Shown here: positions 1,023 to 19,436 of the stretch, piece after piece
Numbering within the stretch: the first letter of the stretch is position 1
Layout: every line of letters starts with the position of its first letter
From: Shigella phage SH-1
Sequence record: PQ642266
DNA: 64,000 nt
Direction: 5' to 3' (one strand)
Position numbers and translations under genes: made by a program
The notes under the pieces: generated by a model
Database searches by the model: none
What the model saw: the letters and a program-made list of their open reading frames with translations, nothing else
Told to the model about the DNA's origin: nothing

Positions 1023-4000
1023 ATGGCCGAGATTAAAAGAAAGTTCAGAGCAGAAGACGGTCTGGACGCAGGTGGCGATAAAATAATCAACGTAGCTTTA
1101 GCTGATCGTACCGTAGGAACTGACGGTGTTAACGTTGATTACCTAATTCAAGAAAACACAGTTCAACAATACGATCCAACTCGTGGATATTTAAAAGATT
1201 TTGTAATCATTTATGATAACCGCTTTTGGGCTGCTATAAATGATATTCCAAAACCGGCAGGAACTTTTAATAGTGGACGCTGGAGAGCATTACGTACCGA
1301 TGCTAACTGGATTACAGTCTCATCTGGTTCATATCAATTAAAATCTGGTGAAGCTATTTCAGTTAACACCGCAGCTGGTAATGATATTACATTTACTTTG
1401 CCATCTACCCCAATTGATGGTGATACTATCGTTCTCCAAGATATTGGAGGAAAACCTGGAGTTAATCAAGTTTTAATTGTAGCTCCAGTGCAAAGTATTG
1501 TAAACTTCAGAGGCGAGCAAGTACGTTCAGTACTAATGACTCATCCAAAGTCGCAGTTAGTTTTAATTTTTAGTAATCGTCTGTGGCAAATGTATGTAGC
1601 TGATTATAGTAGAGAAGCTGTAGTTGTAACACCAGCGAATACTTATCAAGCGCAATCCAACGATTTTATCGTACGTAGATTTACTTCTGCTGCACCGATA
1701 AATATTAAACTTCCGAGATTTGCTAATCACGGCGATATTATTAATTTCGTCGATTTGGATAAATTAAATCCACTTTATCATACAATTGTTACTACATACG
1801 ATGAAACTACTTCAATACAAGAAGATGGAACTCATTCTATTGAAGGCCGTACATCGATTGACGGTTTCTTGATGTATGATGATAATGAAAAATTGTGGAG
1901 ATTGTTTGACGGGGATAATAAAGCACGTTTACGTATTATAACAACTAATTCAAATATTCGTCCAAATGAAGAAGTTATGGTATTTGGTGCGAATAACGGA
2001 ACAGCTCAGACAATTGAGCTTAAGCTTCCAACTAATATTTCTGTTGGTGATACTGTTAAAATTTCCATGAATTACATGAGAAAAGGGCAAACAGTTAAAA
2101 TCAAAGCTGCTGGTGAAGATAAAATTGCTTCTTCAGTTCAATTGCTGCAATTCCCAAAACGTTCAGAATATCCACCTGAAGCTGAATGGGTAACTGTTCA
2201 AGAATTAGTTTTTAACGGTGAAACTAATTATGTTCCAGTTTTAGAGCTTGCTTATATAGAAGATTCTGATGGAAAATATTGGGTTGTACAGCAAAACGTT
2301 CCAACCGTAGAAAGAGTTGATTCTTTAAATGATTCTACTAGAGCAAGATTAGGCGTAATTGCTTTAGCTACACAAGCTCAAGCTAACGTCGATTTAGAAA
2401 ATTCTCCACAAAAAGAATTAGCAATTACTCCAGAAACATTAGCTAATCGTACTGCTACAGAAACTCGCAGAGGTATCGCAAGAATAGCAACCACTGCCCA
2501 AGTGAATCAGAACACCACATTCTCTTTTGCTGATGATATTATCATCACTCCTAAAAAGCTAAATGAAAGAACTGCTACAGAAACTCGCAGAGGTGTTGCT
2601 GAAATTGCTACGCAACAGGAAACTAATGCAGGTACTGATGATACTACAATCATCACTCCTAAAAAGCTTCAAGCTCGTCAAGGTTCTGAATCATTATCTG
2701 GTATCGTAACTTTTGTATCTACCGCAGGAGCTACTCCAGCTTCTAGTCGTGAATTAAATGGTACAAACGTTTATAATAAAAACACTAATAATTTAGTTGT
2801 TTCGCCTAAAGCTCTGGATCAGTATAAAGCTACTCCAACACAGCAAGGTGCAGTAATTTTAGCAGTTGAAAGTGAAGTAATTGCTGGACAAAGCCAAGAA
2901 GGATGGGCAAATGCGGTTGTAACACCAGAAACGTTACATAAAAAGACATCAACTGATGGAAGAATTGGTTTAATTGAAATTGCTACGCAAAGTGAAGTTA
3001 ATACAGGAACTGATTATACTCGTGCAGTCACTCCTAAAACTTTAAATGACCGTATAGCAACTGAAAGTTTAAGTGGTATAGCTGAAATTGCTACACAAGT
3101 TGAATTCGACGCAGGCGTCGACGATACTCGTATCTCTACACCATTAAAAATTAAAACCAGATTTAATAGTACTGATCGTACTTCTGTTGTTGCTCTATCT
3201 GGATTAGTTGAATCAGGAACTCTCTGGGACCATTATACCCTTAATATTCTTGAAGCAAATGAGACACAGCGTGGTACACTTCGTGTAGCTACACAAGTTG
3301 AAGCTGCTGCAGGAACATTAGATAATGTTTTAATAACTCCTAAAAAGCTTTTAGGTACTAAATCTACTGAAGCACAGGAAGGTGTTATTAAAGTTGCAAC
3401 TCAGTCTGAAACTGTGACTGGAACGTCAGCAAATACTGCTGTATCTCCAAAAAATTTAAAATGGATTGTGCAGAGTGAACCTACTTGGGCAGCTACTACT
3501 GCGATAAGAGGCTTTGTTAAAACTTCATCTGGTTCAATTACATTCGTTGGTAATGATACAGTTGGTTCAACACAGTCGTTAGAATTATACGAGAAAAATA
3601 GCTATGCAGTATCACCATATGAATTAAACCGTGTACTCGCTAACTATTTGCCATTAAAAGCAAAAGCTGCTGACGCAAATTTATTAGATGGCCTAGATTC
3701 ATCTCAGTTCATTCGTAGGGACATTGCACAGACGGTTAATGGTTCACTAACCTTAACCCAACAAACGAATCTGAGTGCCCCTCTTGTATCATCTAGTACT
3801 GCTACGTTTGGCGGATCAGTTTCGGCAAACAGCACATTAACTATTTCTAATACTGGAACAGCAACTCGTCTGATTTTTGAGAAAGGACCTCAAACTGGAA
3901 CTAACCCAGCGCAGACGATGACTATCAGAGTTTGGGGAAATCAGTTTGGTGGCGGTTCAGATACAACACGTTCTACTGTATTTGAAGTTGGTGATGAAAC

Positions 4001-4892
4001 GTCTAATCACTTTTATTCTCAACGCAATAAAGCTGGGAATATAACGTTTAGTATCAATGGTACTGTAATGCCAATAAATGTCAATGCTTCGGGTTCTTTG
4101 AACGCGGGCGGCGTTGCAACATTTGGTAGTTCAGTTACTGCTAATGGTGAATTCATCAGCAAGTCTGCAAATGCTTTCAGAGCAATAAATGGCGACTATG
4201 GATTCTTTATTCGTAATGATGCTGCTAACACCTATTTTATGCTTACTGCATCGGGTGATCAGACTGGCGGATTTAATGGATTACGTCCTTTAGCTATTAA
4301 TAATGCATCTGGTCAAGTAACGATTGGTGAAAGCTTAATCATTGCCAAAGGTGCTACTATAAATTCAGGTGGTTTAACTGTTAACTCGAGAATTCGTTCT
4401 CAGGGTACTAAAACCGCTGATTTATACACCCGTGCACCGACATCTGATACTGTAGGATTCTGGTCAATCGATATTAATGATTCAGCTACTTATAACCAGT
4501 TCCCAGGTTATTTTAAAATGGTTGAAAAAACTAATGAAGTGACTGGACTTCCATACTTAGAACGTGGCGAAGAAGTTAAATCTCCTGGTACATTGACTCA
4601 GTTTGGTAACACACTTGATTCGCTTTACCAAGATTGGATTACTTATCCAACGACTCCAGAAGCACGTACCACTCGCTGGACCCGTACATGGCAGAAAACC
4701 AAAAACTCTTGGTCGAGTTTTGTTCAGGTATTTGATGGAGGTAACCCTCCTCAGCCGTCTGATATCGGTGCTTTGCCATCTGATAATGCTACAATGGGGA
4801 ATCTTACTATTCGTGATTTCTTACGAATTGGTAATGTTCGCATTATTCCTGACCCAGTGAATAAATCTGTTAAATTTGAATGGATTGAATAA
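1023..4892 (+). CDS. 34: long tail fibre proximal subunit gp34
   Basis: 1289 aa ORF, near-identical along its length to T4 gp34 (MAEIKR.FRAEDGLDAGGDKIINVALADRTVGTDGVNVDYLIQ...); GGAG upstream of ATG. Confidence 0.95.
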   Translation: MAEIKRKFRAEDGLDAGGDKIINVALADRTVGTDGVNVDYLIQENTVQQYDPTRGYLKDFVIIYDNRFWAAINDIPKPAGTFNSGRWRALRTDANWITVSSGSYQLKSGEAISVNTAAGNDITFTLPSTPIDGDTIVLQDIGGKPGVNQVLIVAPVQSIVNFRGEQVRSVLMTHPKSQLVLIFSNRLWQMYVADYSREAVVVTPANTYQAQSNDFIVRRFTSAAPINIKLPRFANHGDIINFVDLDKLNPLYHTIVTTYDETTSIQEDGTHSIEGRTSIDGFLMYDDNEKLWRLFDGDNKARLRIITTNSNIRPNEEVMVFGANNGTAQTIELKLPTNISVGDTVKISMNYMRKGQTVKIKAAGEDKIASSVQLLQFPKRSEYPPEAEWVTVQELVFNGETNYVPVLELAYIEDSDGKYWVVQQNVPTVERVDSLNDSTRARLGVIALATQAQANVDLENSPQKELAITPETLANRTATETRRGIARIATTAQVNQNTTFSFADDIIITPKKLNERTATETRRGVAEIATQQETNAGTDDTTIITPKKLQARQGSESLSGIVTFVSTAGATPASSRELNGTNVYNKNTNNLVVSPKALDQYKATPTQQGAVILAVESEVIAGQSQEGWANAVVTPETLHKKTSTDGRIGLIEIATQSEVNTGTDYTRAVTPKTLNDRIATESLSGIAEIATQVEFDAGVDDTRISTPLKIKTRFNSTDRTSVVALSGLVESGTLWDHYTLNILEANETQRGTLRVATQVEAAAGTLDNVLITPKKLLGTKSTEAQEGVIKVATQSETVTGTSANTAVSPKNLKWIVQSEPTWAATTAIRGFVKTSSGSITFVGNDTVGSTQSLELYEKNSYAVSPYELNRVLANYLPLKAKAADANLLDGLDSSQFIRRDIAQTVNGSLTLTQQTNLSAPLVSSSTATFGGSVSANSTLTISNTGTATRLIFEKGPQTGTNPAQTMTIRVWGNQFGGGSDTTRSTVFEVGDETSNHFYSQRNKAGNITFSINGTVMPINVNASGSLNAGGVATFGSSVTANGEFISKSANAFRAINGDYGFFIRNDAANTYFMLTASGDQTGGFNGLRPLAINNASGQVTIGESLIIAKGATINSGGLTVNSRIRSQGTKTADLYTRAPTSDTVGFWSIDINDSATYNQFPGYFKMVEKTNEVTGLPYLERGEEVKSPGTLTQFGNTLDSLYQDWITYPTTPEARTTRWTRTWQKTKNSWSSFVQVFDGGNPPQPSDIGALPSDNATMGNLTIRDFLRIGNVRIIPDPVNKSVKFEWIE

Positions 4893-4900: not shown

Positions 4901-6016
4901 ATGGAAAAATTTATGGCAGAGTTTGGACAAGGATATGTCCAAACGCCATTTTTATCGGAAAGTAATTCAGTAAGATATAAAATAAGTATAGCGGGTTCTT
5001 GCCCGCTTTCTACCGCAGGACCATACGTTAAATTTCAAGATAATCCTGTTGGAAGTCAAACATTTAGCGCAGGACTTCATTTAAGAGTTTTTGACCCTTC
5101 CACCGGAGCATTAGTTGATAGTAAGTCATATGCTTTTTCTACTTCAAATGATACTACATCAGCTGCTTTTGTTAGTTTCATGAATTCTTTGGCGAATAAT
5201 AGACTTGTTGCTATATTAACTAACGGAAAGGTTAATTTTCCTCCTGAAGTAGTATCTTGGCTAAGAACCGCAGGAACGTCTGCTTTTCCATCTGATTCTG
5301 TATTGTCAAGATTTGACGTATCATATGCTGCTTTTTACACTTCTTCTAAAAGAGCTATTGCATTAGAGCATGTTAAATTAAGTAATAGAAAAAGCACAGA
5401 TGATTATCAAACTATTTTAGATGTTGTATTTGACAGTTTAGAAGACGTTGGAGCTACCGGATTTCCAAGAAGAACGTATGAAAGCGTTGATCAATTTATG
5501 TCGGCAGTTGGCGGAACTAATAATGAAATTGCGCGATTGCCAACTTCAGCTGCCATAAGTAAATTATCTGACTATAATTTAATTCCTGGTGATGTTCTTT
5601 ATCTTAAAGCTCAGTTATATGCTGATGCCGATTTACTTGCGCTTGGAACTACAAATATATCTATCCGTTTTTATAATGCATCGAATGGATATATTTCCTC
5701 GACACAAGCTGAGTTTACTGGGCAAGCTGGGTCTTGGGAATTAAAAGAAGATTATGTAGTTGTTCCAGAAAATGCAGTAGGATTTACGATATATGCACAA
5801 AGAACAGCACAAGCTGGTCAAGGTGGCATGAGAAATTTAAGCTTTTCTGAAGTGTCAAGAAATGGAGGTATTTCGAAACCTGCTGAATTTGGCGTCAACG
5901 GTATTCGAGTTAATTATATCTGTGAATCTGCTTCACCTCCTGATATAATGGTACTTCCTACACAAGCATCGTCTAAAACTGGTAAAGTGTTTGGGCAAGA
6001 ATTTAGAGAAGTTTAA
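4901..6016 (+). CDS. 35: long tail fibre hinge connector gp35
   Basis: 371 aa; matches T4 gp35 (MEKFMAEFGQGYVQTPFLSESNSVRYKISIAGSCPLSTAG...). Confidence 0.9.
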   Translation: MEKFMAEFGQGYVQTPFLSESNSVRYKISIAGSCPLSTAGPYVKFQDNPVGSQTFSAGLHLRVFDPSTGALVDSKSYAFSTSNDTTSAAFVSFMNSLANNRLVAILTNGKVNFPPEVVSWLRTAGTSAFPSDSVLSRFDVSYAAFYTSSKRAIALEHVKLSNRKSTDDYQTILDVVFDSLEDVGATGFPRRTYESVDQFMSAVGGTNNEIARLPTSAAISKLSDYNLIPGDVLYLKAQLYADADLLALGTTNISIRFYNASNGYISSTQAEFTGQAGSWELKEDYVVVPENAVGFTIYAQRTAQAGQGGMRNLSFSEVSRNGGISKPAEFGVNGIRVNYICESASPPDIMVLPTQASSKTGKVFGQEFREV

Positions 6017-6021
6017 ACTGA

Positions 6022-6049
6022 GGGAGCCTTCGGGTTCCCTTTTTCTTTA
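6022..6049 (+). terminator. intrinsic terminator after gene 35
   Basis: GGGAGCC-TTCG-GGTTCCC hairpin followed by TTTTTCTTT. Confidence 0.6.
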
Positions 6050-6055
6050 TAAATA
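6048..6055 (+). promoter_or_regulatory. T4-type late promoter (TATAAATA) for gene 36
   Basis: Exact TATAAATA about 24 nt upstream of gene 36 ATG, immediately after the terminator. Confidence 0.7.
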
Positions 6056-6078: not shown

Positions 6079-6744
6079 ATGGCTGATTTAAAAGTAGGTT
6101 CAACAACTGGAGGCTCTGTCATTTGGCATCAAGGAAATTTTCCATTGAATCCAGCCGGTGACGATGTACTCTATAAATCATTTAAAATATATTCAGAATA
6201 CAATAAACCACAAGCTGCAGATAACGATTTCGTTTCTAAAGCTAATGGTGGTACTTATGCATCAAAGGTAACATTTAACGGTGGTGTTCAAGTCCCATAT
6301 GCTGTAAACAATACAAACCCATGCGGTATTTATCCAGGTAATGGCGATGCAGCTACTTTTGCTACAGCAAATATTGATATTGTTTCATGGTATGGTATTG
6401 GTTTTAAATCATCACAAGGTTCAGCAGCCCGAACTGTTGTAATTAATACGCGTAATGGTGATATTAATACAAAAGGTGTTGTGTCGGCAGCTGGTCAAGT
6501 AAGAAGTGATGCGACTGCTCCTATAGCAGCGAATGACCTTACTAGAAAAGACTATGTTGATGGAGCAATAAATACTGTTACGGCAAATGCGAACTCTAGA
6601 GTGTTACGATCTGGTGATACTATGATTGGAAACTTAACCGCACCAAACTTTTTCTCACAGAATCCTGCATCTCAACCTTCACACGTTCCACGATTTGACC
6701 AAATCGTAATTAAGGATTCTGTTCAAGATTTCGGCTATTATTAA
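6079..6744 (+). CDS. 36: long tail fibre distal connector gp36
   Basis: 221 aa, same length and position as T4 gp36. Confidence 0.9.
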   Translation: MADLKVGSTTGGSVIWHQGNFPLNPAGDDVLYKSFKIYSEYNKPQAADNDFVSKANGGTYASKVTFNGGVQVPYAVNNTNPCGIYPGNGDAATFATANIDIVSWYGIGFKSSQGSAARTVVINTRNGDINTKGVVSAAGQVRSDATAPIAANDLTRKDYVDGAINTVTANANSRVLRSGDTMIGNLTAPNFFSQNPASQPSHVPRFDQIVIKDSVQDFGYY

Positions 6745-6752: not shown

Positions 6753-9700
6753 ATGGCTACTTTAAAACAAATACAATTTAAAAGAAGCAAAACCGCAGGT
6801 GCACGTCCTGCTGCTTCAGTATTAGCCGAAGGCGAATTGGCTATAAACTTAAAAGATAGAACAATTTTTACTAAAGATGATTCAGGAAATATCATTGATT
6901 TAAGCATTTCCGCTGGCGGTAATATCAGTGGAAATATCACTCAAACTGGAGATTATTTACAGAACGGTACATATAATCTCAATGGAAATCAGTTTGTTTA
7001 TGCAGGAAAATATATTGAATTTTTACCTAAAACAGCTGGTAATGGTGCATGGGCAAATCAACACCTAAATAAAGCTCCTATCTTTACAGATTTGAGCTCA
7101 ACTACTTCCGTTTCAGAATATCATCCGCTGATTAAACAACGCTATAAAGATGGAACTTTTTCTGTTGGTACGTTAGTAAACGAAGGAAGTTTTAAAATTC
7201 ATTATATCAACGAATCGGGAACTTCAAAATACTGGACATTTCGTAGAGATGGCGGATTTGTTGTTGATACAGGAAGTTTGACAGTAACAGATGGAAATAT
7301 TTCTGCTTCTGGTAATATTAATTCGGCTACTGGGGTAGTTTCTGCTCCGCAAATCAATACAAAGACTATAGTATTTGACACAAAAGCATTTGGACAATAC
7401 GATTCACAATCATTAGTTCAATATGTTTACCCTGGAACTGGTGAAACAAACGGAATCAATTACCTTCGCAAATTCCGTGCAAAATCTGGTGGTACAATTT
7501 ATCATGAATTAGCTTCTGCACAAACCGGAAAAAGTGATGAACTTTCTTGGTGGACTGGTAATACAGCGGTTAATAAACAAATGGGCCTTCGCAATGATGG
7601 TTCTTTAGTATTACGACGTTCACTTGCAATTGGTACAATTACAACAGATGAAAACATCAATAACTACGGCTCCACTGGAGCAATGGGTGAATGCTATATA
7701 GTAATTGGAGACGCCGCAACAGGTGTATCATATAAAAGATCTGGTGTATACGATTTAGTTGCTAACGGTCTTTCTATAGCATCTATTACTCCTGACAGTT
7801 TCCGTAGTACTCGTAAAGCGTTATTTGGGCGTTCAGAAGACCAAGGCGGAACGTGGATTATGCCTGGAACGAATGCTGCATTTTTATCAGTTCAAACACA
7901 GGCTGATGAAAACGCTGCTGGAGACGGCCAGACACATATTGGCTATAACTCAGGCGGAAAAATGAACCACTATTTCCGTGGTAAAGGCAAAACTAATATT
8001 AATACTCAAGAAGGCATGGAAGTTAACCCGGGTATTCTTAAAATAGTAACCGGTGCAAATAATGTAATGTTTTATGCTGATGGCGGTATTACATCCACTA
8101 AGCAGCTTTCAATATATAATGGTGTATATTTAGCAGCTAATAATTCTACTGCTGGGCTAACATTCGCTCCAACTACTACAATTGATGGCACTAAGCAAAT
8201 TTTGTGGGAAGGCGGTACTCGTGCTGGACAGAATAAAAGCTATGTAACTGTTAAAGCGTGGGGTAATTCATTTAACGCATCTGGCGATCGTAATCGTGAA
8301 ACGGTTTTTGAAGTAGCTGACGGACAAGGTTATTATTTTTATGCGCAGCGTGTAGCTCCTGCATCAGGTTCAACAACTGGAGTAATTCAATTTAGAATTG
8401 CTGGAGCATTATTAACCGGTGGGGGTATTACATCATCAGGTTCTATTGTTACTGAGTCAAGTTTAGTTGCAAATAATGGATTGTCTGTAAATGGACAAGC
8501 TAAATTTGGTGGAACAGCAGATGCATTAAGAATTTGGAATGCTGAATACGGTGCTATTTTCCGCCGTTCGGAAACTAACTTTTATATTATTCCAACTTTA
8601 CAAAATGCCGGAGAATCGGGCGGTATAAGTAATTTACGCCCATTTACCATCAATCTCGCAAATGGTAGTGTTATGATGGGCAATCATACACAAGCCGGAA
8701 AAAATTTGCTTACTATTGATAACGTATCAAAATTCGTTCAAACCGATGTTAGACTTCGAGTTAATATGGATTCTGACGCTATTGTGGTAAATGCTTCATC
8801 TCAAGCTGCATCTAACTTTATTCAAGGACGTAAGGCTGATGTTACAAAATGGTATTTAGGTATTGGCGATGGTGGAAACGTCGTTCGTATGCATAATTAC
8901 ACCTACTCTCACGGTATTGCATTAAACTCTGATACTGTCGATATTACTAAGCCTCTTAAAATTAATGATATTCGAATTGGTACAGATGGTAACATCACAG
9001 GTGGTACTGGTAATTTTGCTAACTTAAATACAACGTTAAATCGTAAAACCAACGTGGGCGGTTGGGCTGGTAGTTCTGTTGACGGATGGTATAAATTTGC
9101 TACGGTAACAATTCCTCAGGGTACTGGTACAGTGACTTTTAAGATTTCCGGCGGCGCTGGTTTTAATTTTAAAAGCTATAGCCAAGCTTCTGTTGCAGAA
9201 ATAGTTCTTCGCACGGGTAATAATAATCCTAAAGGCATAAACGCTGTACTGTGGAATAGGTCAGACCTGAGTTTTAATCAGATAGCTACTATGAATACAT
9301 CTGGCGATACTTATGATGTATACGTGTTCTGTGCCGGTTATACAAATGCGTTAGTGGTTGAATATTCCTGTAGTGAAAACTCTTCGGTAACCGTAGTCGG
9401 TCTTAACGGAGGCATTCAGCCAGTTGTTGACACATTGCCTGAGGGACATGTTGTAGGTAAAACAGTTCGTCTGTTAAATAATATTGGCGGAACTTTTGCA
9501 GCTGGAGAATCTAACATTGTTACTCGCGGTGAATACGTTACTGATAATCAAAAAGGCATGCGTATTAAATCTAACGGTAATAATATAGGTTCTAATGCAG
9601 CTTTAATTAGAAATGATGGCGGAAGTTTTTATATTTTAGCTACAGATAAAAATACGGAAGAAAAACCCGATGCAGCTAATGGTGATTGGAATGGCTTAAG

Positions 9701-10631
9701 ACCTTTCTCTATTAATATGACTGATGGCCGCGTTGGTATGAATCACGGGTTGAATATTACTGGCGGTGGATTAAACGTTACTGGTGGTAATACTAACTTA
9801 GGTAATATCTCGTCTCGTTTGGTTTCATACGCTCGCGCGCCATCTGGATGGGGAGATACCTCAGATACCATGAAATCTAAAATCACCTTTATGGCAGACC
9901 ACGGTGATTTATCTAATTCAGGTAGTTATTATCCTATTGTCGGTGCATGGAGTAATTATGGCTCAGCAGGTTATCGTCAGACCTTTGAGTTCGGATGGGT
10001 TGGCTCTGGCAGAAGAGCGGGTTGGCGTGATGGTATTATTCGTATACGCGGCGACAATGCTAACGGCCAGCAAGCAAGATGGCGCTTTACAATGGACGGT
10101 ACTCTAGACTGCCCTGGTAAAGTACTGCTACCACAAACAGGTGCCTTTGGTGTCAATACATCAAATGGTCTCGGTGGAAATAGTATAACATTTGGTGATA
10201 ACGATACTGGTATTAAGCAAAATGGTGATGGATTATTAGACATATATGCGAACAGCGTACAAGTATTCCGTTTCCAAAACGGTGATTTGTACTCATACAA
10301 AAATATAAACGCTCCAAACGTTTATATTCGTTCTGATATTCGTTTAAAATCCAACTTTAAACCTATCGAAAATGCACTTGATAAAGTTGAAAAACTTAAC
10401 GGTGTCATTTATGATAAAGCTGAATACATCGGTGGAGAGGCAATTGAAACTGAAGCGGGTATTGTGGCTCAAACGCTGCAAGACGTTTTACCAGAAGCTG
10501 TCCGTGAAACAGAAGACAGCAAGGGTAATAAAATACTCACTGTTTCTTCTCAAGCCCAGATTGCTCTTCTAGTTGAAGCTGTGAAAACACTTTCTTCTCG
10601 TGTAAAAGAACTTGAATCTAAACTTATGTAA
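6753..10631 (+). CDS. 37: long tail fibre distal subunit gp37 with C-terminal chaperone-like domain
   Basis: 1292 aa; position after gene 36; longer than T4 gp37 (about 1026 aa); C-terminal about 110 aa helical segment (..LDKVEKLNGVIYDKAEYIGGE...VKTLSSRVKELESKLM) resembles intramolecular chaperone domains. Confidence 0.9.
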   Translation: MATLKQIQFKRSKTAGARPAASVLAEGELAINLKDRTIFTKDDSGNIIDLSISAGGNISGNITQTGDYLQNGTYNLNGNQFVYAGKYIEFLPKTAGNGAWANQHLNKAPIFTDLSSTTSVSEYHPLIKQRYKDGTFSVGTLVNEGSFKIHYINESGTSKYWTFRRDGGFVVDTGSLTVTDGNISASGNINSATGVVSAPQINTKTIVFDTKAFGQYDSQSLVQYVYPGTGETNGINYLRKFRAKSGGTIYHELASAQTGKSDELSWWTGNTAVNKQMGLRNDGSLVLRRSLAIGTITTDENINNYGSTGAMGECYIVIGDAATGVSYKRSGVYDLVANGLSIASITPDSFRSTRKALFGRSEDQGGTWIMPGTNAAFLSVQTQADENAAGDGQTHIGYNSGGKMNHYFRGKGKTNINTQEGMEVNPGILKIVTGANNVMFYADGGITSTKQLSIYNGVYLAANNSTAGLTFAPTTTIDGTKQILWEGGTRAGQNKSYVTVKAWGNSFNASGDRNRETVFEVADGQGYYFYAQRVAPASGSTTGVIQFRIAGALLTGGGITSSGSIVTESSLVANNGLSVNGQAKFGGTADALRIWNAEYGAIFRRSETNFYIIPTLQNAGESGGISNLRPFTINLANGSVMMGNHTQAGKNLLTIDNVSKFVQTDVRLRVNMDSDAIVVNASSQAASNFIQGRKADVTKWYLGIGDGGNVVRMHNYTYSHGIALNSDTVDITKPLKINDIRIGTDGNITGGTGNFANLNTTLNRKTNVGGWAGSSVDGWYKFATVTIPQGTGTVTFKISGGAGFNFKSYSQASVAEIVLRTGNNNPKGINAVLWNRSDLSFNQIATMNTSGDTYDVYVFCAGYTNALVVEYSCSENSSVTVVGLNGGIQPVVDTLPEGHVVGKTVRLLNNIGGTFAAGESNIVTRGEYVTDNQKGMRIKSNGNNIGSNAALIRNDGGSFYILATDKNTEEKPDAANGDWNGLRPFSINMTDGRVGMNHGLNITGGGLNVTGGNTNLGNISSRLVSYARAPSGWGDTSDTMKSKITFMADHGDLSNSGSYYPIVGAWSNYGSAGYRQTFEFGWVGSGRRAGWRDGIIRIRGDNANGQQARWRFTMDGTLDCPGKVLLPQTGAFGVNTSNGLGGNSITFGDNDTGIKQNGDGLLDIYANSVQVFRFQNGDLYSYKNINAPNVYIRSDIRLKSNFKPIENALDKVEKLNGVIYDKAEYIGGEAIETEAGIVAQTLQDVLPEAVRETEDSKGNKILTVSSQAQIALLVEAVKTLSSRVKELESKLM

Positions 10632-10632
10632 A

Positions 10633-10660
10633 AGAGGGCTTCGGCCCTCTAAGGATTTTT
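10633..10660 (+). terminator. stem-loop / weak terminator after gene 37
   Basis: AGAGGGC-TTCG-GCCCTCT hairpin then TTTTT a few nt downstream. Confidence 0.45.
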
Positions 10661-10661
10661 A

Positions 10662-11450
10662 ATGGCAATTGTAGGTGTTCCTGGCTGGATTGGTGAATCT
10701 GCCGTGAATGAAACTGGACAACGTTGGATGGATGCTGCGATGAGAGCAGTTCGTGTTTCAGTTCCTGGTTGGATGAGCTCAATGGCCGGACAATCTAAAG
10801 AAGTATATTACAGCATTGGTGCTAGCAATTCTTATAATAAAGACACACTAATAAATTATCTCAAATCTCAAGGTAGTACTCCTGTTGTTGTTACTATTAC
10901 TGGTAACTTAGTTTCTTCATCTGCCGGGCAACCTTGCTTAGATTTTCCTAGTTCATTAACTAATGCTTATGTAACGCTTATTATAAATGGCGGTGTAACA
11001 GTATATGGTCGCGGAGGACGCGGCGCGCAAGCGGGAAACCAGGCGGGTGAAGCTGGTGGTACTGCAATTAACAATGGTATAGGTACTCGTCTACGAATCA
11101 CTAACAATGGAGCAATCGCTGGCGGCGGCGGCGGTGGCGGCGGTTGGTCAGTAGACTATAACTTCACATTAGCAGGCGTTGCTGGCGGCGGTGGTGGTCG
11201 TCCGTTCGGTACTGGTGGTCGTGGTGGTCGTGGTAATGGCGGTAATGCATCGTTAACCGCCGCAGGTGGTAAAGTAACTGTTGATGGTAATAACATGAGT
11301 GGTGCAGGTGGTAACGTTGGCGCTGCTGGCGGCGCTGCTGTTCGTACATCAAACTATAACGCCAGCGGTGCGGGTGCAGCAGGTAAAGCTGTTACTGGTA
11401 ATGCTCCAACTTGGACTAAAGTTGGTACAATATATGGTTCAAGAGTATAA
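10662..11450 (+). CDS. 38: tail fibre adhesin gp38 (T2-type, glycine-rich motifs)
   Basis: 262 aa; poly-Gly tracts (GGGGGGGG, GGGGRPFGTGGRGGRGNGG) separating variable segments, typical of T2-like gp38 adhesins and unlike the shorter T4 gp38 chaperone. Confidence 0.85.
   Translation: MAIVGVPGWIGESAVNETGQRWMDAAMRAVRVSVPGWMSSMAGQSKEVYYSIGASNSYNKDTLINYLKSQGSTPVVVTITGNLVSSSAGQPCLDFPSSLTNAYVTLIINGGVTVYGRGGRGAQAGNQAGEAGGTAINNGIGTRLRITNNGAIAGGGGGGGGWSVDYNFTLAGVAGGGGGRPFGTGGRGGRGNGGNASLTAAGGKVTVDGNNMSGAGGNVGAAGGAAVRTSNYNASGAGAAGKAVTGNAPTWTKVGTIYGSRV
11121..11144 (+). repeat. (GGC/GGT)n trinucleotide tract encoding poly-Gly inside gene 38
   Basis: ggcggcggcggcggtggcggcggt read directly. Confidence 0.8.
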
Positions 11451-11481
11451 TTTTGAATAAATATCCTTAAAAGGAGGGTCT

Positions 11482-12138
11482 ATGGCAGCACCTAGAATAT
11501 CATTTTCGCCCTCTGATATTCTGTTGGGTGTTCTAGATCGCTTGTTCAAAGATAACGCTACCGGGAAAGTTCTTGCTTCCCGGGTAGCTGTCGTAATTCT
11601 TTTGTTTATAATGGCGATTGTTTGGTATAGGGGAGATAGTTTCTTTGAGTACTATAAGCAATCAAAGTATGAAACATACAGTGAAATTATTGAAAAGGAA
11701 AGAAATGCACGCTTTGAATCTGTCGCCCTGGAACAACTCCAGATAGTTCATATATCATCTGAGGCAGACTTTAGTGCGGTGTATTCTTTCCGCCCTAAAA
11801 ACTTAAACTATTTTGTTGATATTATAGCATATGAAGGAAAATTACCTTCAACAATAAGTGAAAAATCACTTGGAGGATATCCTGTTGATAAAACTATGGA
11901 TGAATATGCAGTTCATTTAAATGGACGTCATTATTATTCCAACTCAAAATTTGCTTTTTTACCAACTAAAAAGCCTACTCCCGAAATAAATTACATGTAC
12001 AGTTGTCCATATTTCAATTTGGATAATATCTATGCTGGAACAATAACCATGTACTGGTATAGAAATGATCATATAAGTAATGACCGCCTTGAATCAATAT
12101 GTTCTCAGGCGGCCAGAATATTAGGAAGGGCTAAATAA
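11482..12138 (+). CDS. t: holin / lysis timing protein
   Basis: 218 aa; matches T4 holin T (MAAPRISFSPSDILLGVLDRLFKDNATGKVLASRVAVVILLF...); AAGGAGG upstream. Confidence 0.9.
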   Translation: MAAPRISFSPSDILLGVLDRLFKDNATGKVLASRVAVVILLFIMAIVWYRGDSFFEYYKQSKYETYSEIIEKERNARFESVALEQLQIVHISSEADFSAVYSFRPKNLNYFVDIIAYEGKLPSTISEKSLGGYPVDKTMDEYAVHLNGRHYYSNSKFAFLPTKKPTPEINYMYSCPYFNLDNIYAGTITMYWYRNDHISNDRLESICSQAARILGRAK

Positions 12139-12411
12139 TTATTTGTTTGTATACATCTCTAGATATCGATATACACCCTCAAAACCCTCGTTGAATTCGT
12201 CGATGAGGGTTTTCTTATCTTCTTGAGTTAATTCAGAAACAATTTTACGGAATGAATTCTGATTTAACTTTCTACCTTCATGCGTTACTCCAATCTCATT
12301 CAGAAATGCAATAAAATTAACACGATTCTCAACAATATCTTCTCTGGAAAATTTAATCAAAATAGACGCAACAGTAATAATTTCACGAACTGTATCAATA
12401 TTTTTATTCAT
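12139..12411 (-). CDS. asiA: anti-sigma70 factor AsiA
   Basis: 90 aa; MNKNIDTVREIITVASILIKFSREDIVENRVNFIAFLNEIGVTHEGRKL... matches T4 AsiA. Confidence 0.9.
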   Translation of the reverse strand: MNKNIDTVREIITVASILIKFSREDIVENRVNFIAFLNEIGVTHEGRKLNQNSFRKIVSELTQEDKKTLIDEFNEGFEGVYRYLEMYTNK

Positions 12412-12423
12412 TAACTATACCAC

Positions 12424-12576
12424 TCAATTAGTTGACTTTACTATAATATCATCAGACGCTTGATTTGTAAACTGGTCTGTGGTATTTTCTTCAAAAATTT
12501 TTTCTACGAATTCCTTGAACGACTTACGTTCCTGAGCTACATTATGCTCGATTACCATTTCAAGATTATGACTCAT
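12424..12576 (-). CDS. hypothetical small protein (50 aa)
   Basis: ATG overlaps arn stop (ATGA); the asiA early promoter lies inside its coding sequence. Confidence 0.4.
   Translation of the reverse strand: MSHNLEMVIEHNVAQERKSFKEFVEKIFEENTTDQFTNQASDDIIVKSTN
12441..12472 (-). promoter_or_regulatory. sigma70-type early promoter (asiA)
   Basis: Minus strand GTTTACA, about 17 bp spacer, TATTAT/TATAGT. Confidence 0.5.
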
Positions 12577-12851
12577 TCGAAATAATCTTCAATTTCGTAA
12601 TCATGGACATAAATCATTATAGTTTTTAATACATCATCAATACTTTTTCCTGGAGCTGGAATTACGTAAAAATATCCTGCTTTTGAGAGGTCTTTATAAG
12701 TTCCAACCAAGAAATCATTATTCTCGAGATGTAGTTCTTCAACTAATTCATTGACAATTGAGTGGTATAAATTTGGTAGAAACTTATATAGCTTTTCTAG
12801 AATATCAATTTTGATTGTGTATTGAACCACAGACTGAGAATCAATAATCAT
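12573..12851 (-). CDS. arn: anti-restriction nuclease Arn (McrBC inhibitor)
   Basis: 92 aa acidic protein between asiA and motA as in T4. Confidence 0.75.
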   Translation of the reverse strand: MIIDSQSVVQYTIKIDILEKLYKFLPNLYHSIVNELVEELHLENNDFLVGTYKDLSKAGYFYVIPAPGKSIDDVLKTIMIYVHDYEIEDYFE

Positions 12852-12934
12852 AGACCTTCCCCTTATGTTTCTGTTTGCGATTAGATTCTTTAAACGCTTT
12901 CTTCTTATCCTTATGGACAGAAGCTTTATTAAAA

Positions 12935-13153
12935 TTATGTTTTGCGACTAAATTGTTCATAGTGCTGAATTACCTCTCTTAAACATTTGCATGTGAATGA
13001 AAACTTTTTAGCTACACCACATTCAAATATATGTTCTCTTAAATCACGTGTGTCAGTATATCCCATCTCAACGATAAAATGCCGTATTAGATTTTTATCT
13101 TTATCATTGAGAGAATTAAAATAATCGGATTTTGAATTAATTTCCCTGGCCAA
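12935..13153 (-). CDS. hypothetical protein (72 aa)
   Basis: Track ORF; first codon is TTG so true start uncertain. Confidence 0.4.
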   Translation of the reverse strand: MAREINSKSDYFNSLNDKDKNLIRHFIVEMGYTDTRDLREHIFECGVAKKFSFTCKCLREVIQHYEQFSRKT

Positions 13154-13433
13154 ATTGAATCACCTTCAGTTGACGTTTTAGTTCTTTTATCATTTCTTCG
13201 TTCATCGCAATATAAAGATCGCGTAAAGCAGGCTTTAGCATTCCATTTATTGGGGAACTAAATGGACATACATAATCTTTTCCTACGAGCTTTTTAGTGA
13301 ATTCCATATTACAGAACTGAAATGCCGGTTCATTGGCATAAATTCCCCATTTGGTTGACATCATTTTATTGGCATATTCCAATGCCTGGATTTGATTCAT
13401 AATTCCATCAATTTGAAACTTTTTAATATTCAT
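13137..13433 (-). CDS. hypothetical protein (98 aa)
   Basis: Track ORF tightly packed with neighbours. Confidence 0.5.
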   Translation of the reverse strand: MNIKKFQIDGIMNQIQALEYANKMMSTKWGIYANEPAFQFCNMEFTKKLVGKDYVCPFSSPINGMLKPALRDLYIAMNEEMIKELKRQLKVIQFGQGN

Positions 13434-13894
13434 TAGTAAAGGTCCTCAGAGTAAAGTTCTTTTTCACTACCACCGCGTTCAATACGTACTTGTCCGGCGT
13501 AAGTTGCAATAATCATTGCTTCTTCACGTGTCCAATAATTACTATATTGGTCAATAAACCCTTGGTCATCATCACAAACTTGTTGAGTAACTAATTGAGG
13601 TTTAACTACATCTAAAACTTCTGCCATATCTTTAGAATAATGACGAGCACCCGGAATAACAAGAGTTCGTCCATCTTTTAATTTAAAACGGTTGGCTGCG
13701 CAAACAATTCGTCGTTGATACTTTTGATTTTCGTCCCAATATGCAGACTGCCAACAGATTTCAGGAACTTCTTTCAGAATATCTTCTTCTGTGCATTTAT
13801 AACCATGCGCTTTAAATTTTTCAACAAGACTTTCTGGAGTTTCACGGGATAAAGGAACATTCAGCATTTTTAAACGATTAATAAACGGGTTCAT
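13433..13894 (-). CDS. hypothetical protein (153 aa)
   Basis: Track ORF; stop overlaps next start; no recognised motif. Confidence 0.55.
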
Positions 13895-14220
13895 TTAAAC
13901 CATCCTTTAATACGTTGCCACAAAGTTTTCTGTTGAGCTTTGTTAACACCAATTGAGCGAATAACTGGTTGAGATTCCTGGAATTCTTTATAATCAGCAA
14001 GGTAAATTTCGTAAGCCGATTGAACAAAGGTACTAATCGCTGCCATGAAGTTCTTGCGAATTCCCATAGAGGCTTCAGAACCACCACGGATGATTAAATA
14101 TTTACCAGTCTTAATCTTTACGATAGTTCCAAGATAAGCTCCATGGTACCAGATGTCCCACCCCTCTTGAGTGGGTTCTGCACAACGACGAAGTTCATTA
14201 ACAATTTCTAACTTGTTCAT
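13891..14220 (-). CDS. hypothetical protein (109 aa)
   Basis: Track ORF; 4-nt overlap with downstream gene. Confidence 0.55.
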
Positions 14221-14230
14221 TATTTATTCC

Positions 14231-14866
14231 TCACAGTTCAGATGCTACGGTGATTACTGCTTCAATGTTTTCTGCTGAGCGTTTAATGTCAAGATACACA
14301 TTACCGTTTTTAGCGATTTTACATGACATTCCAATATCAGTAAATTTCTGAATATGATGTTCCATCATTTTGTATCCAAAAATTCGCATATTTCCATTGT
14401 TGTTAATTTCAAAATTACGAATTCCGTGAGTGCGTTTTTCTAAAATAGCGAGATAGTTACTACGATAAGTTTCAACCTTTTTAAGAACAAATCCATTTTC
14501 ATCTAAAAGTTTTAACATGAAGTCTTTATCTTCTTCCATATCGGAAGTAATCTCACGAGCTTTACGAGTTGCTCGTTTTTTCAGTAGTTCCGGAGCATTT
14601 TCCTGTGCGTATAAAGTTGCTGCATTTGAAATAATATCCTGAGCTTCACCAGTAATGATTAATCCATCACCAGATTTCTCCACCAGGCCTTTTTTAATCA
14701 ATACCCCAATATTACTATTAACTACTGCATTACCTAAATCTGGATGCACCTCACGAACTTCTGCAGCTGTAATGAAATCTTTCTTAGCAATGGTAATTAA
14801 AATTGCAGCAGTTTTTTCATTCAGAACATCGTTAGAAGCTTTGATGATGTAAGTTACTTTAGACAT
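14231..14866 (-). CDS. motA: middle transcription activator MotA
   Basis: 211 aa; MSKVTYIIKASNDVLNEKTAAILITIAKKDF... matches T4 MotA. Confidence 0.9.
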   Translation of the reverse strand: MSKVTYIIKASNDVLNEKTAAILITIAKKDFITAAEVREVHPDLGNAVVNSNIGVLIKKGLVEKSGDGLIITGEAQDIISNAATLYAQENAPELLKKRATRKAREITSDMEEDKDFMLKLLDENGFVLKKVETYRSNYLAILEKRTHGIRNFEINNNGNMRIFGYKMMEHHIQKFTDIGMSCKIAKNGNVYLDIKRSAENIEAVITVASEL

Positions 14867-14907
14867 TTTCTAATCTCCGTAATTCTGTATCAGTAGTTGA
14901 TAGTTGT

Positions 14908-14938
14908 ATAGTACCACAGTATGCTTTGGTTGTAAACC
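14908..14938 (-). promoter_or_regulatory. sigma70-type early promoter (motA)
   Basis: Minus strand GGTTTACA, 17 bp, tgTGgTACTAT extended -10, A/T-rich UP region. Confidence 0.65.
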
Positions 14939-14953
14939 GTTTTGTGAAAAAAT

Positions 14954-14985
14954 TTTTGAAATAAAAAAAGGAGAGCCGAGGCTCT
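14954..14985 (-). terminator. intrinsic terminator downstream of gene 52
   Basis: Minus strand GGAGAGCC-TCGG-CTCTCC hairpin followed by TTTTTTTA. Confidence 0.7.
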
Positions 14986-14993
14986 CCCTAAAA

Positions 14994-15143
14994 TTACTGC
15001 ATGACTGTGATAACTGTCATGATAACACGTTGAATTCCGAACGCAAGAAGACCTCCTGCTACAGCTGGAACAACACCTAAACCCGCCAGTAAAATGCTAC
15101 CAGATACTAATGCAGCGCTTGTAATACCTATGAATGGACTCAT
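14994..15143 (-). CDS. small hydrophobic membrane protein (49 aa)
   Basis: MSPFIGITSAALVSGSILLAGLGVVPAVAGGLLAFGIQRVIMTVITVMQ; ATG overlaps gene 52 stop (ATGA). Confidence 0.45.
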   Translation of the reverse strand: MSPFIGITSAALVSGSILLAGLGVVPAVAGGLLAFGIQRVIMTVITVMQ

Positions 15144-16468
15144 TTGATTTCCTCTAAATCTTTGGTGTATTCTGTAACTACATCAGTAGTTTTCCAATAT
15201 TCGTTTTCTTCTTTTTTGGCTTTAGCTTCTTCAGCAAGTTTCTTTGCTTCGTCGGAAGTCATATGAAAAATGTTCATTCCAACTAGTTTATCAACATAAG
15301 AAGAATACATATCAATTTTAGAAAGTTCTTCGGTCAGTTCTTTACGAGTTTTACCTTGTACAACAATTTCACCTGAAATTACTTTCTTAATGAAATGTGC
15401 CTTGGCAAAGGCTAAACGAAATGCTGATTCAGTTTCTTTGATTTTGTTATCAATTCGTTTTTGGACATAAGTTTTACGAACTTCAACGAAGTCTTTGATT
15501 AAATCAACTACGTTATCGTAAACTTGCAGTTTTCCTTTCTCATTAATGACGGTAATATTCTGAGAACGACGCTCAATCAACCCGAAGTCTTTCATAATTT
15601 TTGCATGACGTTCTTCTTCATTATCGCTCAAAGAGTATTCTTTTCGGAATTTAACTTTGAATCCAAAACCATGCTCACCACAAGCATCATCCCATGTAAT
15701 GAAGCCTTTATCTTCAAGCGGGTCTAAGATTTTACTCACATAAGTTTCACGATCATACTTATACGGAATCTCAGTGATATTCATTTGAGTTCGTGAAGTA
15801 AACTTGTACGTTCCACGAATTTCATATTGACCGTCAATTTCAACGACTTCACCGCGAAATTCTGGGAATTCTACCTTCGGTTTAGTTACTTTCTTTCCTT
15901 GAAGAGCTTGCAATACAGCTTTCTTGACAGAAGAAACACTATGAGGAAGAATGTAAGTTGCATAACCAGTTGCAATACCGGAAACACCATTAAGAAGAAC
16001 GGTAGGAATAATAGGCAAATAGAAAGCAGGCGGAATGTGTTCTTTATCTTGATGTACCGGAGCATATTCAGTATCTTTATATACGTTATAGAAATTTTTA
16101 CTTACACGAGCAAAAATATAACGACTTGCCGCTGCTTTTTGAACAGTACGAGAACCAAAGTTTCCTTGACCATCTAACAAAGGAAAGTTATTATTCCAAG
16201 TATTAGCCATCAAAGCCCCCGCGTCTTGCGCAGAGTTTTCACCATGATGATATCCAAGGTCTGCTACACCACCTGCAATAGAAGCAAGTTTGTGAAACTT
16301 ATCTTTATTTCCTCGCGCCAAATCAAGAGCTCGAGCAATAACAAATCGTTGGACTGGCTTAAATCCATCAATCATATTTGGAATAGCACGATTTTCAACC
16401 GTGTACATAGCATAAGCCAGTGCTTCATTATCAATGATACTTTTTAAATCGCGATTATTCAGTTGCAT
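15140..16468 (-). CDS. 52: DNA topoisomerase II medium subunit gp52
   Basis: 442 aa; matches T4 gp52 (MQLNNRDLKSIIDNEALAYAMYTVENRAIPNMIDGFKPVQRF...). Confidence 0.9.
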   Translation of the reverse strand: MQLNNRDLKSIIDNEALAYAMYTVENRAIPNMIDGFKPVQRFVIARALDLARGNKDKFHKLASIAGGVADLGYHHGENSAQDAGALMANTWNNNFPLLDGQGNFGSRTVQKAAASRYIFARVSKNFYNVYKDTEYAPVHQDKEHIPPAFYLPIIPTVLLNGVSGIATGYATYILPHSVSSVKKAVLQALQGKKVTKPKVEFPEFRGEVVEIDGQYEIRGTYKFTSRTQMNITEIPYKYDRETYVSKILDPLEDKGFITWDDACGEHGFGFKVKFRKEYSLSDNEEERHAKIMKDFGLIERRSQNITVINEKGKLQVYDNVVDLIKDFVEVRKTYVQKRIDNKIKETESAFRLAFAKAHFIKKVISGEIVVQGKTRKELTEELSKIDMYSSYVDKLVGMNIFHMTSDEAKKLAEEAKAKKEENEYWKTTDVVTEYTKDLEEIK

Positions 16469-18020: not shown

Positions 18021-18045
18021 TTTCTGCTCCTCCGTAGTTGATAGG

Positions 18046-18078
18046 GTAATAATACCACAGAGGAACAGTCTTGTAAAC
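18046..18078 (-). promoter_or_regulatory. sigma70-type early promoter
   Basis: Minus strand GTTTACA, 18 bp, TGgTATTAT. Confidence 0.55.
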
Positions 18079-18262
18079 AACTTTTTAAAAATATTCGTAA
18101 TAAATGTGAATACCAATCACTACTGCCGAAACTTGCGCAACCCACCACGCACAAGCAATAAGTACAGAATTAAAAATTTTCATAATAACCTCATCACAAA
18201 AGTAAATGTTAAACAAATCAATGGAATACTAATTAACCAAACAAAACACCACCATAATGAAC

Positions 18263-18526
18263 TCATAGTTCAATCTCAGCGATTTTCATTTCATTACTAT
18301 TAATAGCCGCTTTAAGACTATCTGAAAGAATTACATTCCAGTGGTCATTCATATGACCATTAACTAAGCGTGTAATTTCTTCAGGAGTTGAAAAATAAGG
18401 CGTATCAGACTCCCAGTGCGATAGTCCCAAGCGAGTATAAATCATACCTTCATCATCGCTAGAATATTCAACTGACACAAACTCATCAGTTATTTTATGT
18501 TTAGCGTAATAAAATTTAAATTTCAT
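18263..18526 (-). CDS. hypothetical protein (87 aa)
   Basis: Track ORF trimmed to first ATG. Confidence 0.5.
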   Translation of the reverse strand: MKFKFYYAKHKITDEFVSVEYSSDDEGMIYTRLGLSHWESDTPYFSTPEEITRLVNGHMNDHWNVILSDSLKAAINSNEMKIAEIEL

Positions 18527-18531
18527 TTTAC

Positions 18532-18738
18532 TCAATAATCCGCTAAAAGATCGACGATTGCATCACGAAGACACTTATTCGCAATACGTTTAAGAGCAAT
18601 TTCAGTTTCTGGAGCATTTTGAATAATCATTGAATTCAATTCAGCCTCAGCAAACTGAAGTTCTTTAACTAATTCAGCTTTATATTTTCCTTGCCCTTTC
18701 TTAGCTTTTGCTCGTTTTAATTCAGCTGTAGTAAACAT
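18532..18738 (-). CDS. hypothetical protein (68 aa)
   Basis: ATG at 18738 preceded by GGAGAATAAA; track ORF upstream part is translated promoter. Confidence 0.5.
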   Translation of the reverse strand: MFTTAELKRAKAKKGQGKYKAELVKELQFAEAELNSMIIQNAPETEIALKRIANKCLRDAIVDLLADY

Positions 18739-18772
18739 TTTATTCTCCAAATCCGTATCAGTTGATAGTTGT

Positions 18773-18803
18773 ATAGTACCACAGTCCTTGTGGTATGTAA
18801 ACC
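18773..18803 (-). promoter_or_regulatory. sigma70-type early promoter
   Basis: Minus strand GGTTTACA, 18 bp, TGgTACTAT; leader near-identical to promoters at 14908 and 44741. Confidence 0.6.
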
Positions 18804-18818
18804 GTTTTGTGAAAATTT

Positions 18819-19376: not shown

Positions 19377-19436
19377 TAAACTTTCCTTTCACGTCGGAAT
19401 TACTGATATTCATATAATAAATCATAACTTCCCTTA

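Follow-up and report, generated by a model that had tools for sequence, protein, structure and literature searches.

Which kind of tip does the long tail fibre of Shigella phage SH-1 carry, and is this tip a foreign piece in an otherwise T4-like genome? We addressed this question in a stretch of 64,000 nucleotides (nt) of SH-1 DNA (sequence record PQ642266), hereafter the window, whose genes 37 and 38 occupy positions 6753 to 11450. An earlier note, made from the letters alone, had read this region as a T2-type distal tail fibre and adhesin module in an otherwise T4-like backbone. Our analysis indicates with high confidence that the region encodes the long tail fibre's distal half and its tip in a Tequatrovirus that is a very close relative of Shigella phage SH-2, and that its gp38 is of the T2 type and chimeric. 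The open reading frame (ORF) scan on which the gene coordinates rest (Table 1) returned exactly the positions and lengths that the earlier note had listed.

The gp37 precursor matched phrog_1699 over its full length (1088 bits) and contained the Pfam domains Gp34_trimer, gp37_trimer and Peptidase_S74. The last of these (PF13884, 'chaperone of endosialidase') covered residues 1194-1251 at 56.5 bits (profile positions 1-58 of 58; curated cut-off, 22 bits), in agreement with the suggestion that this protein of 1292 amino acids (aa) ends in a chaperone-like segment. The gp37 C-terminus also matched gp37 of phage S16 (PDB 6F45_A, E=7e-13), and the window residues S1194-D-I-R-L-K1199 aligned with 'SSDRRIK' of S16 (6F45_A) and with 'ADLRAK' of the MYRF ICA domain. 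In line with the endosialidase and MYRF literature, we take S1194 and K1199 to be the catalytic Ser/Lys dyad. Cleavage has been reported at DLNVS^SDRRIKK in S16 and at DVYIR^SDGRLKI in fPS phages (PMC7917993), and the corresponding site of the window reads PNVYIR^SDIRLKS. From this comparison we predict that gp37 is cleaved between R1193 and S1194, which would release a chaperone of 99 aa.

Immediately downstream of the chaperone-bearing gp37 gene, behind a 30-nt spacer, lies gene 38. Its product matched Pfam GP38 (PF05268) at 235.8 bits over residues 47-262 (profile positions 1-218 of 218; curated cut-off, 25 bits), Pfam Gp38_N (PF21721) at 64.6 bits over residues 1-42, and phrog_2056 at 323.8 bits. 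Glycine accounted for 23% of the whole protein and for 32% of residues 121-262. These results bear out its description as a glycine-rich adhesin of 262 aa. Since the fibre proteins are homologous along their whole length to well-characterised ones, the module is not a product of chance. They also agree with the proposed T2-like organisation, in which a gp37 with a C-terminal chaperone is followed by a separate tip adhesin whose variable loops, by homology, set the specificity.

A comparison with T4 placed the limits of the module. Homology to T4 DNA extended from the start of the window to about position 6902, 150 nt into gene 37, and stopped at about 6903, in codon 51. It was weak (71% nt identity) over 7383-8615 and then essentially absent to 11456, before returning at about 11457, just before gene t, in an alignment over 11457-15264 at 96.2%. 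At the protein level, residues 1-50 of gp37 were 96% identical to T4, residues 51-100 were 24% identical and residues 51-200 as a whole 14-26%; the shaft (about residues 200-650) reached 46-86% in 50-residue blocks. Beyond about residue 650 nothing aligned meaningfully, with at most 28% identity over residues 750-1050 and 0% aligned identity past about residue 1050. Neither the gp37 C-terminus nor gp38 aligned full-length to T4, and no BLAST alignment to T4 was found between 9029 and 11456. A T4-type tip was rejected because the gp37 C-terminus lacks T4 homology, gene 38 does not align to T4 gene 38, and Pfam assigns the gene product to the adhesin family. T4 likewise carries its fibre genes between gene 36 and gene t, and its gp37 has the first 50 residues and part of the shaft in common with the window. 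However, T4 gp37 has 1026 aa, binds the receptor itself and lacks Peptidase_S74, and T4 gp38 is a 183-aa lambda-Tfa-like chaperone absent from the virion (PMC3157838), to which the window's gp38 shows no homology.

Phage T2 (LC348380.1), the prototype of the class, has the same architecture and gene order, and its gp38 also has 262 aa. The C-terminal 300 aa of its gp37 (1341 aa; 76.7% identical overall) are 92-100% identical to those of the window, and both the chaperone and the intergenic hairpin are conserved. The gp38 specificity domain, however, is only 54.5% identical to that of T2, and DNA homology to T2 was lost over 11018-11372, the BLAST alignment returning at 11373. T2 uses FadL; given this divergence, the receptor of the window's gp38 need not match it.

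We next weighed the possibility that a T4-backbone phage recently gained a foreign T2-type g37-g38 cassette in one recombination event with its left end in gene 37. T4 homology does end at about 6903 and return at about 11457, and gp34, gp35 and gp36 are slightly nearer to T4 (95.4%, 97.8% and 92.3% protein identity) than to T2 (93.1%, 97.0% and 79.6%). To call these three proteins near-identical to T4 is acceptable (92.3-97.8%) but somewhat generous; the DNA of genes 34, 35 and 36 is 93.1%, 94.3% and 91.7% identical. Local divergence from both T4 and T2 (62-88%) occurs in gene 34 at 3600-4350 and in gene 36 at 6150-6600. Against a recent cassette stands the rest of the window, which outside 6900-11457 is at least as near to T2 (95.2% identity over at least 92.5% of its length) as to T4 (94.6% over 89%); the comparison with T2 lacked the last 2.4 kb of the T2 record, the low coverage at 18106-20625 is an artefact and similarity to T2 is underestimated, while the T4 stretch compared ended at 46000, from which the T4 gap at 62355-64000 probably follows. 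Its accessory loci also follow T2. Gene 39 (topoisomerase large subunit, 22000-25300) is unsplit and collinear with T2, and T4's gene 60/60.1/mobA insertion, including the translational-bypass gene 60, is absent from this region. At 41998-42943 lies a T2-type beta-glucosyl-HMC-alpha-glucosyltransferase gene, 95.7% identical to T2 LC348380 22205-23150 and without a T4 counterpart, which suggests T2/T6-style DNA glucosylation rather than that of T4's beta-gt.

The distribution of the two tip types points in the same direction. The nearest relatives SH-2, CrRp10 and ime09 all have the same organisation as the window. Across a phage collection, the T2-type gp38 adhesin matched in 759 records and T4-type gp38 in 210, many of the latter being T4 laboratory variants. 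The adhesin form has been described as predominant (Trojet et al., PMC3157838; Dunne and Leiman, PMC6851490), and T4 is the phage to which a replacement has been attributed, having swapped its ancestral g37 C-terminus and g38 for lambda-related sequences (Trojet et al., PMC3157838). The foreign module is therefore that of T4, not of this phage: the T2-type tip is the common and probably the ancestral T-even arrangement, and the needle-tipped gp37 of T4 with its chaperone-only gp38 is the exception. The region moreover has several breakpoints with different nearest relatives, as detailed below, rather than the ends of one cassette. We thus regard a single recent cassette as improbable, and the claim of an otherwise T4-like backbone was not upheld.

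Could gp38 be only an assembly chaperone, with the receptor-binding site in gp37? The label 'distal long tail fiber assembly catalyst' is attached to homologues in several GenBank records, and gp38 of T4 does act as a chaperone of this kind. Yet the window's protein bears no detectable resemblance to the T4 one: BLAST aligned nothing across gene 38, and Pfam places it in another family. In addition, gp37 has a chaperone of its own in Peptidase_S74, and gp38 is homologous over its full length to the adhesins of S16 and PP01, for which there are solved structures on the fibre tip or in complex with the receptor domain; a purely chaperone role is very hard to credit. Full-length alignment to S16 gp38 (PDB 6F45_D) gave E=6.5e-48. 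An AlphaFold2 model of gp38, built on 52 homologues, had a predicted local distance difference test (pLDDT) score of 91.6 and a predicted template modelling (pTM) score of 0.87, with the lowest confidence at the blocks of the first two hypervariable segments (HVS1 and HVS2). Foldseek aligned this model with 6F45_D at E=6.5e-23 (template modelling, TM, scores 0.80/0.85) and with the receptor-binding domain of PP01 gp38 (9V85_C) at a root mean square deviation of 1.3 A (TM 0.94), and no PDB fold besides 6F45_D and 9V85 matched it at E<=0.001. In the model, gp38 is thus predicted to adopt the three-domain fold with a polyglycine-II (PGII) sandwich.

The S16 tip (6F45) and PP01 gp38 (9V85) have this same fold of attachment domain, beta-helix and polyglycine sandwich. 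They have in common with the window the conserved tryptophan prongs, the same gp37 chaperone and an aligned SDxRxK cleavage motif; they differ in overall sequence (44-47% identity to the window) and in their HVS loops, and both bind OmpC. W9 and W22 of the attachment domain were at least 90% conserved across the 52 homologues, and in S16 three tryptophans plug into the gp37 tip (PMC6851490). When 16 labelled and 52 database homologues were aligned, conserved glycine-rich motifs (GRMs) alternated with hypervariable segments in the C-terminal domain; we followed the GRM/HVS scheme of PMC3157838, in which our boundaries of HVS1 are approximate. Receptor binding has been placed at the distal hypervariable loops (PMC6851490, PMC12032242, PMC12892980).

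We then mapped the mosaic by a sliding comparison with seven phages. Between 6753 and 11450 it showed no fewer than four blocks that differ in their nearest relatives, with one junction inside gene 38. A mosaic boundary inside gene 37, as had been suggested, does exist with respect to T4, with its left side at about 6903 (codon 51); the mosaic is nevertheless finer than one breakpoint. The shaft block near-identical to Citrobacter phage CrRp10 contained only 2 differences in 2.9 kb. Phage ime09 was only about 50% identical over 6903-7800 by global alignment, and over 7801-9600 both ime09 and Lutter were 98-99% identical. The segment 9601-10050 was close to SH-2 only, with at most 94% identity to the other compared phages. 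It is followed by the longest run of perfect identity with ime09, which spans the gp37 tip (the gp38 docking end), the chaperone, the spacer hairpin, the gp38 attachment and beta-helix domains, HVS1 and most of GRM2.

Downstream of this run the relationship changes. Over 11143-11450 the window was 90% identical to G8, 87% to Lutter and 60% to ime09 and CrRp10. Differences from ime09 numbered 0 over 10662-11131 and 123 over 11143-11450; those from G8 numbered 138 and 30, respectively. The protein followed the same pattern, with 100% identity to ime09 over residues 1-120 and 68% over residues 121-262, against 83% and 87% for G8. The crossover between the ime09-type and G8-type sequences lies at 11132-11142, inside the (GGN)8 tract. 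Judged from these alignments, gene 38 reads as a natural chimera in which an ime09-type block is joined, within the poly-Gly tract, to a G8/Lutter-type HVS2-4 set. What the analysis shows is the homology, the domain content, the modelled fold and the breakpoints; the direction and the history of the exchanges we infer.

The relationship with SH-2 (PQ642267.1, Tequatrovirus) gave a second view of this junction. The region 6753-11450 was 99.6% identical to SH-2 at the nucleotide level and the whole window 99.3% identical over 99.5% of its length, while CrRp10 and Shigella phage ESh26 were 98.5-98.6% identical over 95% of the 4.7-kb region. SH-2 has the same gene order (SH2_74 and SH2_75, its genes all being annotated 'hypothetical protein') and the same combination of ime09-type HVS1 with G8/Lutter-type HVS2-4. 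Its gp38 protein is 100% identical to that of the window. Gene 38 differs from it at 11 nt, all synonymous and all within 11066-11126, where SH-2 has G8/Lutter-type bases and the window ime09-type bases; the junction therefore lies at different sites in the two phages, that of SH-2 at about 11063-11066, about 70 nt upstream of the window's, and both fall in the stretch that codes for GRM2. The two junctions would be accounted for either by separate crossovers or by a single crossover with a short tract of conversion after it.

Gene 37 was 99.85% identical to SH-2, with 6 differences, 5 of them non-synonymous. The residues G957/R, G1034/R, R1087/T and R1088/T (window/SH-2; nt 9621, 9852 and 10012-10015) each add or remove an arginine in the distal shaft, and these four changes may be host-range or adaptation mutations. 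Identity to SH-2 also fell to 92-97% at 1200-1800 in gene 34 and at 5250-5700 in gene 35, amid surroundings of 100%; the two stretches are small patches left by recombination within the genes of the proximal fibre.

The HVS2-4 set (101 aa) had 7 matching records in the phage collection, among them SH-2 (100%), G8 (96%), FJ1 (94%), Lutter (93%) and IsaacDaniel (92%). In a large protein collection the same set stood behind at least three HVS1 types (P0001/2/3/5, P0004 and the window) and, among P0001-P0005, also occurred with an RB49-like C-terminus. Neither gp37 nor gp38 was present as an exact sequence in a collection of 15 billion proteins, in which the best 90%-cluster representative of gp38 was 85% identical; the chimeric allele is rare in public data, though carried by SH-2. 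Tetart and Krisch, and also Trojet et al. (PMC3157838), have reported modular shuffling of this kind at glycine-rich motifs. Other intradomain gp38 chimeras, natural and engineered, namely phage Mi (Trojet 2011) and CM8 x EV240 (bioRxiv 10.64898/2026.04.02.716166), likewise combine HVS1 of one lineage with the other HVSs of another, were exchanged in a conserved glycine-rich motif and have a specificity that follows the distal HVSs; their parental types differ from those of the window.

The (GGC/GGT)n tract at this junction, to which the earlier note had drawn attention, is in frame and encodes G154-G161. Its S16 equivalent, 151-GGGGGGGG-158, is PGII helix 3 of the polyglycine sandwich (PMC6851490). 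Among the 52 homologues G155-G157 and G159 were invariant and G154, G158 and G160 at least 90% conserved, and the run comprised 7-8 glycines in every aligned gp38 protein. That the tract is a slippage-prone contingency repeat, or that a dedicated system, for example a diversity-generating retroelement, creates the variation in gene 38, is highly implausible: Tandem Repeats Finder does report a period-3 array (7.7 copies) and the hypervariable segments are sharply delimited, but the repeat unit is a codon, so slippage would keep the frame, the glycine columns and run length are conserved among homologues, the same run is a structural PGII helix in S16 (PMC6851490), and the variation consists of block exchanges with identifiable relatives, not of adenine-specific substitutions. 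No template repeat of the gene-38 3' variable region was found in the 64-kb window, in which a reverse transcriptase gene was not specifically searched for.

Which receptor might this chimeric adhesin recognise? We compared gp38 residues 121-262 with reference adhesins of assigned receptor from a 255-phage screen (bioRxiv 10.64898/2026.04.02.716166) and from BASEL (PMC8594841). Identity was 59-60% to the OmpA types Bas45 and RB49, 58% to the Tsx types JK38 and Bas39 and 47% to that of T6, and 46% to the OmpF types Bas38 and Bas47. PP01 and S16 (OmpC) were aligned as well; the HVS2-4 loops of PP01 resembled those of the ime09 parent, not those of the window. When the part from HVS2 onward was exchanged by engineering, a T6-like phage went over completely from Tsx to OmpA (bioRxiv 10.64898/2026.04.02.716166). 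Because this exchange was enough, the specificity of the window's gp38, as read from its sequence, should follow the G8/Lutter group. A literature search found no receptor determination for G8, Lutter, FJ1, IsaacDaniel, SH-2, ime09 or CrRp10, apart from a crude assay on FJ1, and the supplement tables of the 255-phage receptor screen list neither the HVS2-4 carriers nor ime09/CrRp10.

Short tail fibres also need lipopolysaccharide (LPS), and the barrels of outer-membrane proteins resist proteinase K. For these reasons the FJ1 assay is weak: periodate cut adsorption by 48% and proteinase K left it unchanged, a result that its authors took to mean an LPS receptor (PMC10035155). The hosts from which carriers of the G8/Lutter HVS set came are E. 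coli, Shigella boydii and Hafnia paralvei. With a group that has no assigned receptor, this assay and these hosts, room is left for an unlikely but not negligible reading, namely that the gp38 allele of the window and SH-2, an ime09/PP01-like HVS1 joined to G8/Lutter/FJ1-type HVS2-4, binds a receptor outside Tsx, OmpA, OmpC, OmpF, FadL and OmpW. Such a receptor might be, for example, an LPS/O-antigen structure or an unlisted outer-membrane protein. From the two crossover points, the GRM2/poly-Gly coding block could in addition be a recurrent recombination hotspot that has made this combination more than once.

Taken as a T2-type fibre tip, the region would work as follows. Genes 36, 37 and 38 would probably be transcribed late from TATAAATA at 6048, the likely start of this transcript judging from its position and from knowledge of T4. 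The gp37 chain would trimerise into a beta-helical fibre, aided by its own C-terminal intramolecular chaperone, and the chaperone domain would then cut itself off through the S1194/K1199 dyad, so that a flat trimeric tip is exposed. One copy of gp38 would dock on this tip through its N-terminal domain (W9, W22 and W37). Its C-terminal half would form a PGII sandwich of glycine-rich motifs, including G154-G161, and the hypervariable loops between the motifs would make up the distal face that attaches to the host receptor and determines the host range.

Nothing contradicts this identification, but it has weak points. Autocleavage, docking and receptor binding are steps that we infer from homologues. 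The late promoter and the terminator are consensus matches only: TATAAATA was not enriched, with 4 matches in the window against 9.6 expected by chance, and the site is not significant alone; the hairpin between genes 37 and 38 folds at -13.4 kcal/mol with a z-score of -1.17, which is not exceptional. The parents of the chimera were deduced from few sequenced phages, and the HVS2-4 donor is only about 90% identical to G8 at the nucleotide level. Receptor assignment by homology was rejected, the specificity domain being only 46-60% identical to adhesins of assigned receptor. As for the hairpin, the 30-nt spacer that contains it is identical in T2, CrRp10, Lutter, ime09 and G8, and T2 record X04442 annotates it as a potential terminator. 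A second terminator-like hairpin with a UUCG tetraloop was observed at 6020-6041, directly after gene 35 and just before TATAAATA; phages G8 and Lutter have an annotated terminator at the matching site.

Table 1. Features of the long tail fibre region and of its surroundings in the window (positions in nt; aa, amino acids)
Feature	Position	Strand	Size	Basis or remark
Gene 34	1023-4892		1289 aa	ORF scan
Gene 35	4901-6016		371 aa	ORF scan
TATAAATA, T4-type late-promoter consensus	6048-6055	+		Exact pattern match, 24 nt upstream of gene 36
Gene 36, distal hinge connector, joins gp37 N-terminus	6079-6744	+	221 aa	Pfam Phage_T4_gp36, 155.8 bits
Gene 37, long tail fibre distal subunit	6753-10631	+	1292-aa precursor	ORF scan
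Conserved first 50 codons of gene 37, gp36-joining end	6753-6902	+	50 codons	96.0% nt identity to T4, 99.3% to T2
Shaft block near-identical to Citrobacter phage CrRp10	6834-9742	+		Perfect runs 6834-8122, 8124-8872, 8874-9742
Block identical to ime09	10110-11131	+	1,022 nt	Longest run of perfect identity with ime09
Intramolecular chaperone of gp37, S1194-M1292	10332-10631	+	99 aa	Pfam PF13884; release by autocleavage predicted
UUCG-tetraloop hairpin AGAGGGC-UUCG-GCCCUCU between genes 37 and 38	10633-10650	+		Terminator-like
Gene 38, T2/S16-type fibre-tip adhesin	10662-11450	+	262 aa	ORF scan and Pfam
gp38 N-terminal attachment domain, aa 1-42, W9/W22/W37	10662-10787	+	42 aa	Pfam Gp38_N
HVS1, about aa 120-130, RGAQAGNQAGE	11019-11051	+		Protein alignment; ime09/CrRp10/Sf22 type
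GRM2, aa 131-161, AGGTAINNGIGTRLRITNNGAIAGGGGGGGG, glycine-rich motif	11052-11144	+		Conserved in 16/16 aligned gp38, many columns invariant
(GGC/GGT)8 tract GGC GGC GGC GGC GGT GGC GGC GGT	11121-11144	+		In frame, encodes G154-G161
HVS2 (aa 162-174), GRM3, HVS3 (aa 187-213), GRM4, HVS4 (aa 225-237)	11145-11372	+		Receptor-specificity part
GRM5 and conserved C-terminal strand, aa 238-262	11373-11450	+		Protein alignment
Gene t (holin), right flank	11482-12138	+		Pfam Phage_holin_T, 390.8 bits
Intergenic repeat copies	14883-14956, 18038-18092, 18748-18821, 26724-26797, 27436-27490, 38511-38565, 44716-44789, 59363-59436			

Elsewhere in the window, three copies of a 68-nt direct repeat (65-72% identical) were found at 2424-3094 in gene 34, where they form an internal motif of the proximal fibre protein. 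A 324-nt segment at 59816-60139, between nrdH-like and 55.8-like genes, is absent from SH-2, T4 and T2. The ORF in this segment (59811-60122, minus strand) encodes a 103-aa protein of unknown function that matched phrog_2749 (E=1e-48); the segment was found in about 419 other Tequatrovirus records, which makes it a common accessory ORF. On the early-gene side of the genome we also observed eight intergenic repeats of 55-74 nt, 60-78% identical, which are most likely early promoter regions of the T4 type, as seen on the minus strand.

The module itself is already known: it is the T2/S16-type fibre tip of the textbooks, and GenBank already has a nearly identical phage that encodes the same gp38 protein. 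Mildly new are the intragenic gp38 chimera with its poly-Gly junction, the alternative junction in SH-2, and an HVS2-4 group to which no receptor has been assigned. The finding matters little as a discovery; it is of practical use for annotation and for predicting host range. It corrects the record of the SH-2 genes, which were annotated without a function, and the gp38 allele group of G8, Lutter, FJ1, IsaacDaniel and SH-2, lacking an assigned receptor, marks a gap in receptor-prediction panels. The habit of taking T4 as the reference makes a common arrangement look like an insertion. The window and SH-2 together show cleanly, in a natural case, how an adhesin is shuffled at a conserved glycine-rich motif, a case in which the fibre-docking half of the module was inherited as one block and only HVS2-4 was exchanged.

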